From the NCBI GenBank assembly GCA_905188025.1, contig CAJJKI010000002.1, positions 78,181 to 142,180 on the forward strand: a stretch of 64,000 nt of DNA, given 5' to 3'. Below are positions 34,931 through 41,792 of this stretch, in pieces; the stretch's first letter is position 1, and every line of letters begins with the position of its first letter. The translations under genes were made by a program, and so were the position numbers. The notes beneath the pieces are model-generated. The model was given only the letters and a program-made list of their open reading frames with translations, made no database searches and was not told where the DNA came from. The stretch comes from an uncultured Eubacteriales bacterium. GTDB taxonomy: Bacteria; Bacillota_I; Bacilli_A; RF39; UBA660.

Positions 34931-35959
34931 TCAATCTCCTAGGAGAACTTTGATGGTTGAATTTATAGGGATAATGGTATTTGGACTTGGTGATATGGCT
35001 TTTATGATGGTACCAGTACCGGCATAGTTTACAGTAAAGCTTTTTAGTTCTTTTTTAGCGCTGTCAAGTGGCATGTTAATAACGTTAGGGACAGTAGCAT
35101 ATTTAGTGTCATACCAATTATAAGTTTTTTCTAGGGTGTAATCTGACTTTGGTATTTGTAATTTATCAATGATATCTATCATGATATTTTTAGCGATAGG
35201 GGCTGAGATAGTTCCTCCATATTGGGTTACGCCTTTAGGATTATCTACGGCTACATATACGACGGCTTGGGGGTTATCGGCAGGGAGAAATCCAATGAAT
35301 GATAGGATATAGTTGCCTGATAGATAATGGCCATCTTTTACTTTTTGAGCAGTACCAGTTTTTCCTCCAACACGATATCCTTCGATATAAGCATTTCTTC
35401 CAGTACCATAGGCTACAACGGTTTCTAGGGTCATACGGACAGTTTGGCTGCTTTCATTTGAGATGACTTTTCTAACTATTTGTGGTTTATTTTCTTTGAT
35501 TATTTCATTGGTATTTGGTTCGATGATTCTTTTTACGACATATGGCTTATATAAAGTTCCTCCATTAATGGCAGCGGATACGGCAGTGATTTGTTGTATT
35601 GCGCTAACACTTATTCCTTGACCAAAAGCAGTAGTGGCTAGTTCTACAGGGCCAACATTTTTTAGATTAAAGAGAATACCTGATGATTCACCATTTAGAT
35701 CGATACCAGTTTTTTTACCAAAACCAAAGTTATTGATATATTTGAATAATCTTTCTTTACCTAATTTATTACCTAATGATACAAAGCCTGGGTTGCAAGA
35801 GTTTTGGACTACTTGTAAATATGTTTGGGTACCATGCCCTCCGTGACGCCAACATTTGATACGAGCTCCATCTACGTTGATACTACCACTATCATGGAAG
35901 GTATCATTTAATAAATCAACAGTTTTTTCTTCAACAGATGAAGCTAGGGTGATTATTTT
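34931..35959 (-). pseudogene. class B penicillin-binding protein (SpoVD/FtsI-like), C-terminal segment of a split gene
   Basis: Uninterrupted open frame of 342 codons with no start codon. It begins K-IITLASSVEEK and contains QNSCNPGF (SxN), GGKTGTAQ (KTG) and a C-terminal PASTA-like domain. The ORF track shows only its last 167 aa, from an internal Met. Confidence 0.9.
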
Positions 35960-35971
35960 GAAAATAACCTC
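35946..35971. other. left element/host junction (attL-type site)
   Basis: AGGGTGATTATT-TT-GAAAATAACCTC. Host PBP sequence matches up to 35959. The arms share a GGT.ATT core as an imperfect dyad. Confidence 0.7.
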
Positions 35972-35994
35972 CGAAAACGATACCTAAATAAAGT

Positions 35995-36025
35995 AAAAAA
36001 GACTAGATTACCATATAACCTAGTC
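35995..36025 (-). terminator. weak intrinsic terminator after the recombinase gene
   Basis: On the minus strand, GACTAG-13 nt-CTAGTC followed by TTTTTT. The stem overlaps the recombinase stop codon. Confidence 0.45.
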
Positions 36026-37750
36026 AATGTCACAACTTAAGTATATATTAATTTTAAAACTATTTCTTTGGAAATCAGATCTTCCTAGATCTAATGTTTC
36101 AACTTCTTTACTAAATATTGGCGAGTATTTATCATCATCTATATGTCTAGCACATTTTCCAGTAGGAATTGGTTTTTTCAATAAATTCAGATAAATTTTT
36201 AACATTAATTTATGTCTATCATTGTCCTCCTTATAGACTATAATTTCCTCCAAAAACTTATCTACAAATTCACTAACATTATTTTTATAATCAACTTGCT
36301 TTTTAATAGCATCTTCAATAATATTGATATTACCAAAACTATCAGACATAATCTTTCTTTCTTGTTCTATTTTTCCAATCCTTATATTTAAAGATGATAT
36401 ATCTTCATTATATTTATCATTTCTTTCTTTAAATTCTAGATTATTAATACTACCATCAATATTCAATTCTAATAACTTTTCTTTTTTTGTTTCAATAGTT
36501 TTGATTTCTTTTTTTAATTTTGAAATTTCAAATTGATAATTGTTATCTTTTTTTAAATTAGAATAATAATCTAACATTTCTTTTATAATTTCATTTTTAT
36601 TATTAAATACTTGTTCCATAATAATTACAAAAATATTATTCAAGTCCATTTCTGCAATTATTGGACTTTCACAAGCATCTAGTCTATATTTTACATAATT
36701 ACCACAAGCCCATCTAGGCTTCGTTTGTTTTCTTTTGCTTGACATTCTCTGGTAAGAAACATTGTGTTCACTACAAAATATTTTTGTGGTATAACAATAT
36801 TTTCTTTCGGCTCTTTTGGCATTGCCATTACTTGCTTTCATTAGTGTACTTCTGCTATCTAATATCTCATTTACACGATTCCATAATTCTTCACTAATTA
36901 TGGCTGGTATTGATTCATCTTTATATATTACTTGTTCTTCTATTGGTATATAAACTCTTTGTTTAGTTCTGTAATCAATAATTTCAGTAGTATGTCCACG
37001 ATAAAAACCTTTATATTTAGGATTCTGTATAATTCTTTTTAATGTATCCTTATCATAAATATTTCCTTTATAATTATTTATACCTTGCCTGTGTAATTCC
37101 ATTGCTAATTTATAAAACCCATATTTACCAGTAGCATATAATTCAAAAATTTTTCTTATTTTTTTTGCTTCTTCTTCTACAATTACTAATTTAGCATCAT
37201 CTTTTTTATAACCAGTAATTATATTAGAACCTAAAACTCTACCTTTTTTTATTGCTTCTTTGTGTCCCCATTTAACACGAGAAGAAAGTCTTTTGACTTC
37301 TTCTTGAGCAACACTTCCCATCATATTAAGTATAAATTCAGAGTTAGGATCATAAGTATTTATTCCATTTGATTGAAAATATACACCAACATCATTAGCA
37401 AGTAATTCTTGTGTATATTTGATACTATCAGATAAATTTCTAGAAAATCTAGAAACTTCTTTTGTAACTATTAAATCAAAATAGCCAGATTTAGCATCAT
37501 CAATCATTTGTAAAAATTTTTTTCTTCGTTTAACAGTGCTACCACTAATACCTTCATCTATGTAACCATTAACATAAGTCCAATTTTTATTTGACTTTAT
37601 AAAATTTTCAAAAAAAGATATTTGATTATCTAAAGAGTTTAATTGTTCATCACTTTCAGTAGAAACACGGGCATAAAAAGTAACTCTTAAAGGTAGTTCG
37701 GCAATATTTTTGCCTTTTAAGATTTCTTCTCTGACTTTATAGAATCTCAT
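36020..37750 (-). CDS. large serine recombinase (SpoIVCA/CisA/TndX class)
   Basis: Resolvase catalytic domain (VTFYARVSTESDEQ..SLDNQ, TKEVSRFSRN), a recombinase domain, a Cys-containing zinc-ribbon-like region (CSEHNV...WACGNY) and a long coiled-coil. GGAGGTAG SD. Confidence 0.95.
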   Translation of the reverse strand: MRFYKVREEILKGKNIAELPLRVTFYARVSTESDEQLNSLDNQISFFENFIKSNKNWTYVNGYIDEGISGSTVKRRKKFLQMIDDAKSGYFDLIVTKEVSRFSRNLSDSIKYTQELLANDVGVYFQSNGINTYDPNSEFILNMMGSVAQEEVKRLSSRVKWGHKEAIKKGRVLGSNIITGYKKDDAKLVIVEEEAKKIRKIFELYATGKYGFYKLAMELHRQGINNYKGNIYDKDTLKRIIQNPKYKGFYRGHTTEIIDYRTKQRVYIPIEEQVIYKDESIPAIISEELWNRVNEILDSRSTLMKASNGNAKRAERKYCYTTKIFCSEHNVSYQRMSSKRKQTKPRWACGNYVKYRLDACESPIIAEMDLNNIFVIIMEQVFNNKNEIIKEMLDYYSNLKKDNNYQFEISKLKKEIKTIETKKEKLLELNIDGSINNLEFKERNDKYNEDISSLNIRIGKIEQERKIMSDSFGNINIIEDAIKKQVDYKNNVSEFVDKFLEEIIVYKEDNDRHKLMLKIYLNLLKKPIPTGKCARHIDDDKYSPIFSKEVETLDLGRSDFQRNSFKINIYLSCDID

Positions 37751-37761
37751 AATCTACCTCC

Positions 37762-40808: not shown

Positions 40809-41458
40809 AAATTCCATCCCTTTTCTTTTGCTAAATTATCAATTGCTACACAATAACTATCAATCATGCCACGATTAATAAAAAATTCTTTATCATATTT
40901 AGCATCTAGTAAGTCAAAAACCAAAAATGAAACTTTAATTTTGAGGTATAAACAAATGGCTAGTCGATGTGCACCATCAATTGGAATGCCTGTTTTACTT
41001 ATAGGTATTACGGTTGTGCTTAAACCTTTTGTTTTTATGGATTCAATTAATGTGTTAAAATTGTCAATAAAATCATCTGGGCTAGATTTACTGCCATCAG
41101 GCTCAAAAAAATTATTAAAGGCTTTAATATGGGATAAATATATTTTTTTAGCTAAGTCATAATTACTCTTTTCAATGTAACTTTTTACATAAAAATATTT
41201 TACATAGACATCATATCTGTAACGAGAGGTTAATTTTTCGGGGCTACATTCATATACATAATATTGTTTTCTTTTTTTTAGCAATGAATATATATAGTGA
41301 TTATTAATAAGTTTATTTGCAGCATTTTCGTCTACAATTTTGATTAATTTGCTATTTTTTATAGGACTCATATTAATGTCAGTAATAACTATATTGGAAC
41401 TATTATAAAATTTATCAAATATTATTTTCCCCATATTAGGTATTTCTTTCGTTTTCAT
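40805..41458 (-). CDS. hypothetical protein with ParB/Srx-like DGxHR motif (tentative)
   Basis: ...ISKTGIPIDGAHRLAICLYL resembles the ParB N-terminal/sulfiredoxin-fold nucleotide-binding signature. It is the first gene of the cargo operon. Confidence 0.35.
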   Translation of the reverse strand: MKTKEIPNMGKIIFDKFYNSSNIVITDINMSPIKNSKLIKIVDENAANKLINNHYIYSLLKKRKQYYVYECSPEKLTSRYRYDVYVKYFYVKSYIEKSNYDLAKKIYLSHIKAFNNFFEPDGSKSSPDDFIDNFNTLIESIKTKGLSTTVIPISKTGIPIDGAHRLAICLYLKIKVSFLVFDLLDAKYDKEFFINRGMIDSYCVAIDNLAKEKGWNL

Positions 41459-41521
41459 ACTTATTTATCACATCCAATATAAATATTTAATCAAGATGAT
41501 TTAAAACGTTTATTTGGAGGT

Positions 41522-41550
41522 AGTATACAATTTATATACAATTTTGTCAA
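41522..41550 (-). promoter_or_regulatory. near-consensus sigma-A promoter of the cargo operon
   Basis: On the minus strand, TTGACA, 17 nt spacer, TATACT. The spacer and -10 contain the direct repeat ATTGTATA twice. It lies about 60 nt upstream of the first cargo ATG. Confidence 0.55.
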
Positions 41551-41766
41551 TATGTATTTTCCTTTAAAAAAAATTGGAATTTTCATTTTTACTATAAAAA
41601 CAATAAATCTAAAAAAGAAAAAACTCCATTAAAAACGAAGTTTAGTCTAAAAAATTATATTAAAAAAAGAAGTGTAACAGGTTTAATCTTTATTAAAAAC
41701 ATTTAATGAAAAATCAAACAAGTATGTATGGTTTATAGAAATTAACATTTAAATATATTGCTTTCG

Positions 41767-41792
41767 GGTAGTACAACATTAAAGGTACTACC
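41767..41792. other. right element/host junction (attR-type site)
   Basis: GGTAGTAC-AACA-TT-AAAG-GTACTACC. An 8-bp perfect inverted repeat is centred exactly on the TT shared with the left junction. Confidence 0.75.

Follow-up and report, generated by a model that had tools for sequence, protein, structure and literature searches.

We analyzed a 64,000-bp stretch of contig CAJJKI010000002.1 (assembly GCA_905188025.1; hereafter, the window), in which spoVD, a gene for a class B penicillin-binding protein (PBP), is split in two by a 5,821-bp segment. The segment is probably a site-specific intervening element, which would be excised by its own recombinase as a step of cell development. New here are the pinning of the crossover to the AA dinucleotide in the Lys codon of the SxxK motif, a covarying dyad of the attP site centred on this AA, and the finding that a perfect palindrome at one junction of the window is not a feature of the element family.

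The interrupted gene was treated as a sporulation gene because the rejoined protein passes the SpoVD equivalog model TIGR02214 spoVD_pbp (712.8 bits, cut-off 688), the host encodes Spo0A (265 bits, cut-off 200) and SpoIVA (674 bits, cut-off 460), and spoVD of Bacillus subtilis, needed for cortex formation, is sigma-E-controlled (PMC517825). The host genome also encodes sigma-K/E-like genes and a SpoIIID-like gene, and it keeps other class B PBPs for growth.

Split spoVD and the position of the crossover

The break in spoVD falls between positions 46 and 47 of the Pfam Transpeptidase profile. Joining the two halves in silico at AA gave an open frame of 635 aa reading PGSTFKIIT. Six other single-split spoVD alleles, also rejoined in silico, gave open reading frames (ORFs) of 640–651 aa with STFK, SCN, and KTG.

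The left junction reads GGTGATTATTTT|G, with TT at 35958-59, and the right junction reads CA|TTAAAGGTACTACC, with TT at 41779-80. Written in the gene orientation, the upstream junction is GGT AGT ACC TTT AA|T GTT GTA CTA CC, and the downstream junction is GGAGGTTATTTTC|AA AAT AAT CAC C. The TT is the AA of the SxxK Lys codon on the coding strand; it was the sole identity common to both junctions, with a mismatch on either side. The sites reconstructed from the junctions were ...GGTAGTACCTTT-AA-AATAATCACC... for attB (intact spoVD) and TATCGTTTTCGGAGGTTATTTTC-AA-TGTTGTACTACCCGAAAGCAATA, a dyad-symmetric sequence of ~50 bp, for attP (excised circle). The first-pass annotation of this DNA had reported the same junction letters, an overlap of exactly TT within the catalytic Lys codon and the same two sites; the letters were identical on re-check, the overlap stood, and an independent rebuild returned both sites unchanged.

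Uninterrupted spoVD alleles of related organisms were used as empty sites: 52 alleles from the same genus and other genera of the family. The predicted join was TTY-AAR-ATH in 52/52 of them, as the reconstruction predicted. The attB consensus at the 90% level was TAnGAnCCnGGnnnnACnTTn-AA-nATnATnAC, so the target is kept at the first and second codon positions only. The element had been proposed to target the conserved nucleotides of the PBP active site; this was borne out for codon positions 1 and 2, but not for position 3.

A scan of species-representative genomes yielded 41 loci with a recombinase 54–97% identical to that of the window. Wherever enough flank was present, the recombinase gene lay directly upstream of a spoVD fragment starting at residue 289–293, in agreement with the earlier expectation that the target would be conserved across many hosts. 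Both junctions were available for 20 complete related elements: AA was the sole identity between junctions in 10/20, identity ended immediately 3' of AA in 18/20, and the intersection of all junction overlaps was AA. A candidate junction 7 bp upstream in one genome (G024) was dropped, since in a wider alignment the element side there merely mimics ACA-TTT. Taken together, the 52 empty sites, the 20 elements and the symmetry axis of attP support an exchange at two bases (AA/TT) within the Lys codon, the crossover claimed in the first-pass annotation.

Dyad symmetry was scored about the AA centre over positions 2–24 for four site types rebuilt for 20 elements. It reached 67% in attP, 36% in attB, 38% in each of the junctions, and 35% in the 52 empty sites. 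Positions 6–8, 13–18, and 22 of attP were symmetric at 80–100% (13–18 at 80–95%), and the attP consensus was TATCGTTTTCGGgGGTTACTTTC-AA-TATTGTAnCAcCCGAAAgcnATA. Its outer arms TTTCGG...CCGAAA, situated 13–18 bp off the centre, had been overlooked previously. In a sub-clade at 68–70% recombinase identity, the two arms switch jointly from TTTCGG/CCGAAA to (C)ATTGG/CCAAT(G). Because the axis survives this coordinated change, the covarying arms are the strongest evidence obtainable from sequence alone for a recombinase dimer that would be centred on AA. Thus, the AA dinucleotide is central in an imperfect dyad of the att sites, and attP is symmetric to at least +/-24 bp. All four half-sites have a TAC-like element at positions 8–6, T at position 3, and G near positions 10–13; these common elements probably reflect contacts of the recombinase domain. 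The family-wide symmetric positions of the left junction were 3, 7, 9, and 10. In the model of the Listeria integrase, the zinc-ribbon motif is shifted 5 bp inward between attP and attB; no motif matching such a shift was visible in attB of the elements studied here.

Recombinase, candidate helper and proposed excision

The insert consists of seven separate genes with stop codons, every one on the minus strand (Table 1). An intein or intron was set aside in view of these separate genes, the recombinase and the dyad att sites. Domain matches identified the gene next to the left junction as that of a 576-aa large serine recombinase, the enzyme class expected earlier from the 2-bp crossover. Its N-terminus matched Resolvase PF00239 (117.1 bits, residues 25–171), and the catalytic domain matched PDB 3g13 with E 3e-37; the C-terminal domain matched PF07508 (69.6 bits). 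The zinc ribbon Zn_ribbon_recom PF13408 scored 24.3 bits, just below the cut-off of 25.3, at the position where it is expected (residues 321–374). A K/E-rich stretch past residue 400 looks like the coiled-coil insertion of the zinc ribbon. Among complete elements, the three nearest ones inspected (G120, G056, and G000 itself) all have the stem ...GGTAATCTAGTCTTTTTT of the hairpin at the recombinase stop codon.

The gene orf52 ends 11 nt ahead of the recombinase gene. Its homologues, with 39–98% identity, immediately precede the recombinase gene in almost every related locus for which this flank is available, and weaker relatives precede some of the recombinases inserted at another spoVD position (site 2, see below). 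The orf52 protein resembles SHOCT PF09851 at 18.9 bits, below the gathering threshold of 27, and three of its divergent homologues scored 15–17 bits against PF20612, below the cut-off of 24. Judged by its conserved place, orf52 is a candidate recombination directionality factor. The heptamer CATACAC ahead of orf52 was invariant in the alignment of 19 elements, and the 3' arm of the conserved hairpin that follows it holds the ribosome-binding site of orf52. The heptamer is a putative sigma-E-like -10 element, read as such from its likeness to the sigma-E -10 consensus CATACA-T. Several elements (L080, L083, L086, and L093-L097) have an extra, TTG-initiated ORF of ~40 codons, situated after the conserved hairpin and ahead of the orf52 homologue, whose start it overlaps with its stop as TAATG.

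We propose that the recombinase would bind both junctions as dimers and cut the AA/TT within the Lys codon of SxxK with a 2-bp stagger; the half-sites would be exchanged by subunit rotation and then religated. The products would be intact spoVD (attB) and a circle with the ~50-bp dyad-symmetric attP, and the polarity of the reaction would be set by the non-palindromic AA/TT core. Excision would take place in the sporulating mother cell, where the 52-aa orf52 protein, expressed from the sigma-E-like promoter with the conserved CATACAC, may license it as the directionality factor; the forespore would retain the element.

Several observations weigh against excision tied to sporulation. Neither an excised circle nor a same-species empty site was found in the contig collections scanned: metagenome contigs did not contain the exact 24-mer of attB, and a degenerate attP pattern applied to metagenome and viral contigs returned no excised circle, one more junction (L150), and four chance matches. 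The junction was returned because the pattern also fits attR where the host uses ATT ATT. Some recombinases share 90–97% identity although the SpoVD proteins of their hosts share only 56–66%. The elements therefore move horizontally as well, and their excision need not be tied only to sporulation. No significant family match was found for orf52, the role of which is deduced from position and conservation, and the promoter reading draws on one conserved heptamer and the assumed consensus only. Finally, the source genome is a metagenome-assembled genome (MAG), 72% complete, of an organism never shown to sporulate.

These points bear on the alternative that the segment is an ordinary integrative mobile element which inactivates spoVD and excises only for its own transfer, its carriers not sporulating or not needing spoVD. 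Horizontal spread, as seen from the 90–97% identical recombinases in different genera, favours such an element; so do the frequent loss of sporulation in gut Bacillota, the reduced spoVD in RF39 (PMC10868615), and the uneven occupancy within the genus of the window (10 species empty, 1 with a site-1 element, and 2 with site-2 elements). The identity mismatch between recombinase and SpoVD, together with this varying occupancy, indicates that the elements still integrate into new hosts. A survey of the family gave a different picture of the genes themselves. The sample comprised one genome per genus (151 genera, tallied by hand); ~84 genera were uninterrupted across the region and ~40 were broken at one of three spoVD positions, some genomes having two or three elements within one gene. 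Site 1 falls in the SxxK Lys codon. At site 2 the Asn codon of SxN is interrupted, with AA as the shared core here too (L019, L061, L074, L085, L086, L094, L101, and others), and site 3 lies near residue 412–415 (L046, L050, L053, L054, L057, L060, L077, and L096). The examined fragments of split genes were all open, ordered and in frame and kept the catalytic motifs, as a dead gene would not be expected to do. Spo0A and SpoIVA are moreover retained in the host. Even the smallest related elements, of 2.4–3.5 kb, contain little beyond the small ORF and the recombinase gene, so this core is kept in elements without transfer genes. We therefore regard mere inactivation of spoVD as unlikely and prefer developmental excision.

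The 8-bp palindrome at the right junction could likewise be given a functional meaning. The sequence GGTAGTAC (41767-74)-N10-GTACTACC (41785-92) is a perfect dyad with its centre between the two T's. A dyad matching in 8/8 positions with a 10-nt spacer occurs at 6/64,000 centres of the window (9.4e-5), and a symmetric perfect run of >=8 within 20 nt at 6.7e-4 of the centres. At the left junction, GGTGATTATT matches the reverse complement GGTTATTTTC in 7/10 positions. Both dyads had been noted in the first-pass annotation; the weaker GGT.ATT dyad on the left is present, and the right one is indeed perfect, centred on TT and expected by chance at ~1e-4, but it did not prove to be a recognition feature conserved in the family. 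Across 23 upstream junctions, 3 to 8 of the 8 arm positions matched (mean 4.7), the window being the maximum, and the only positions always paired were 13, 7, and 6 (G...C, A...T, and C...G).

It is therefore very doubtful that the recombinase is tuned to palindromic excision substrates and needs the GGTAGTAC codons for targeting, in spite of the centring of the 8/8 match on the core. The closest relatives, whose recombinases are 95–98% identical, occupy GGTTCTAC or GGATCTAC and match in only 4–6 of 8 positions; positions 10 and 9 are paired in just 9% and 17% of the elements, and across the family the junctions (38%) are not more symmetric than attB. The catalytic Ser codon is AGT at 11/23 occupied sites and AGY at 12/52 empty sites (the remainder being TCN); this enrichment, in related and thus non-independent genomes, is not significant (Fisher p = 0.056). 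Half of the occupied hosts encode the catalytic Ser by TCN rather than AGT, so the element does not need GGTAGTAC. In our reading, the window dyad is perfect because the host codons GGT AGT AC (G-S-T) happen to match the variable positions of the element half-site too. The comparison points to a G-N5-AC skeleton as the only part general across the family, with the perfect palindrome largely confined to the present genome.

A chimeric contig, in which assembly or binning joined a mobile element to two gene halves, would be conceivable for a 72% complete MAG of 36 contigs but can practically be set aside: the two junctions are well inside a contig of 148 kb, and >40 assemblies of independent origin, drawn from various studies and hosts, show the same architecture with the same core.

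Comparison with known intervening elements

We assign the element, as judged from its sequence features, to the skin/gin type of sporulation-gene intervening elements. It resembles skinCd of Clostridioides difficile sigK (CD1231 and CD1234; PMC5025042) in that a large serine recombinase gene adjoins one junction of a mother-cell sporulation gene and exact excision restores the frame, the latter only in silico for the window element. CD1234 is a small acidic helper with a sigma-E promoter and a short leader, dependent on sigma-E and SpoIIID (PMC5025042); its candidate counterpart in the window is orf52 with CATACAC. The two elements differ in target (sigK versus spoVD) and in size: 14.6 kb versus 5.8 kb, with relatives of the latter down to 2.4 kb. 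Unlike skinCd, the window element has no phage-like genes, its candidate helper is encoded directly upstream of the recombinase, 11 nt apart, and it is known from sequence alone.

The gin element in gerE of Bacillus cereus ATCC 10987 (PMC5595907) is likewise not a prophage and encodes a large serine recombinase, GirC, with a very small factor (GirX, 42 aa). Integration by the recombinase alone and excision by both proteins have been shown for gin and would be expected for the window element. In contrast to the latter, gin interrupts gerE, has two further recombinases (girA and girB), and shares a 9-bp sequence between its junctions, while in half of the window-type elements the shared sequence is the 2-bp core.

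SPbeta, which interrupts spsM of B. subtilis, is an active phage of 134 kb, whereas the window element lacks genes for virions, lysis or replication. Both combine a serine integrase with a small directionality factor, only a candidate in the window; the SPbeta factor (SprA/SprB system) has its own mother-cell promoter, and the gene is reconstituted during sporulation (PMC4191935, PMC5499854). The best NCBIfam matches of the window recombinase were XisF of the Anabaena fdxN element and staphylococcal Ccr, which have the same large-serine-recombinase architecture. It belongs to neither family because the scores are far apart from the cut-offs (80.6 versus 375 for XisF and 115.6 versus 900 for CcrC). 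XisF is also similar in that excision is developmental and takes place in a terminally differentiating cell.

Sporulation genes described as interrupted are sigK, spsM, spoVFB, spoVR, gerE, and yabG; spoVD was not found among them in the literature searched. It would join this short list of genes rebuilt by DNA excision, in an uncultured gut lineage with a reduced genome, the sporulation of which is itself only deduced. In addition, attB, attP, and a defined core are now available for an entire clade of large serine recombinases not yet characterised, enzymes of a type used as genome-integration tools. In the order RF39, spoVD was reported to be reduced or absent (PMC10868615). A split spoVD may be scored as absent in gene-content surveys, perhaps also in that one, if the family belongs to RF39.

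Other insertion sites, cargo genes and further observations

The recombinases of sites 1, 2, and 3 each fall into a clade of their own, supported at 100/100, 100/99, and 100/99, respectively. A sister clade, 45–47% identical, is encoded directly upstream of a fragment of a Peptidase_S11 D-Ala-D-Ala carboxypeptidase gene (L041, L042, L043, and L045 in genomes G066, G064, G081, and G114, respectively). The profile match of this fragment begins at position 42 of 239, and the break is, as in spoVD, at the AA of the Lys codon in SxxK (...AA|AATAATGAC). It is quite conceivable, if somewhat short of probable, that one radiation of serine recombinases in small-genome gut Bacilli has specialised on AA dinucleotides in catalytic-motif codons of spore peptidoglycan enzymes; cortex formation would in that case depend on up to three or more independent mother-cell excisions, and elements of 2.4–6 kb would still spread between genera without transfer genes.

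Positions of all features are given in Table 1. The full five-gene cargo of the window element was common to only three other elements (L068, L075, and L081; L062 is on the same contig as L081), with parts of it in a few more; the cargo operon is therefore considered accessory.

Table 1. Features of the split spoVD gene and the intervening element (positions in the window).
Feature	Position	Strand	Basis and remarks
spoVD 3' part, SxxK Lys codon to stop (rest of transpeptidase, SCN, KTG, PASTA)	34931..35959	-	Pfam Transpeptidase profile positions 47-298 (218.9 bits) and PASTA
Left junction, element P half-site and host B' half-site	35934..35983		Sequence; core TT 35958-59; weaker dyad GGT.ATT.T (7/10)
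Intervening element, 5,821 bp with the core counted once	35960..41780	-	Core-to-core distance; GC 21-29% vs 30-37% in the flanking gene
Terminator-like hairpin across the recombinase stop codon, 41 nt ahead of the crossover	36001..36025	-	Stem recurs in relatives
Large serine recombinase, 576 aa, YARVST with Ser30 near the N-terminus	36020..37750	-	Pfam Resolvase, Recombinase, zinc ribbon; PDB 3g13
orf52, 52 aa, candidate recombination directionality factor (MFETPRITILEYELIINKKLYDQGVITEQQYDEV...)	37762..37920	-	Kept beside the recombinase in related loci
Conserved CATACAC (37951-37945), then 9-bp hairpin and T-run (37948-37927)	37927..37951	-	Alignment of 19 elements; terminator-like site
Cargo operon, five genes	38008..41458	-	Pfam and NCBIfam matches
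Cargo, 136-aa ORF	38008-38418	-	
Cargo, histidine phosphatase	38402-38920	-	Pfam/NCBIfam
Cargo, dTMP-kinase-like P-loop protein	38925-39518	-	Pfam/NCBIfam
Cargo, GT2 glycosyltransferase	39528-40817	-	Pfam/NCBIfam
Cargo, 217-aa ORF	40805-41458	-	
Right junction, host B half-site and element P' half-site	41755..41804		Sequence; core TT 41779-80; dyad arms 41767-41774 and 41785-41792
spoVD 5' part, codons 1-293, PBP dimerisation and transpeptidase start, last residues ...PGSTF	41781..42659	-	Pfam PBP_dimer 81.8 bits; Transpeptidase profile positions 3-46

Four loci (L068, L070, L071, and L075) encode a recombinase 91–97% identical to that of the window next to SpoVD of 56–63% identity, which implies recent horizontal spread; no transfer genes were found in them. 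Further recombinase clades of the family (L051, L058, L059, L047, and L055) do not adjoin spoVD, and one of their flanks encodes an NMT1-like binding protein. The ends of two contigs of genome G014 (C9 and C35; L029 and L030) overlap by ~40 codons around site 1 of a spoVD that looks intact; the overlap may be an assembly-graph branch from a mixed population with and without the element.

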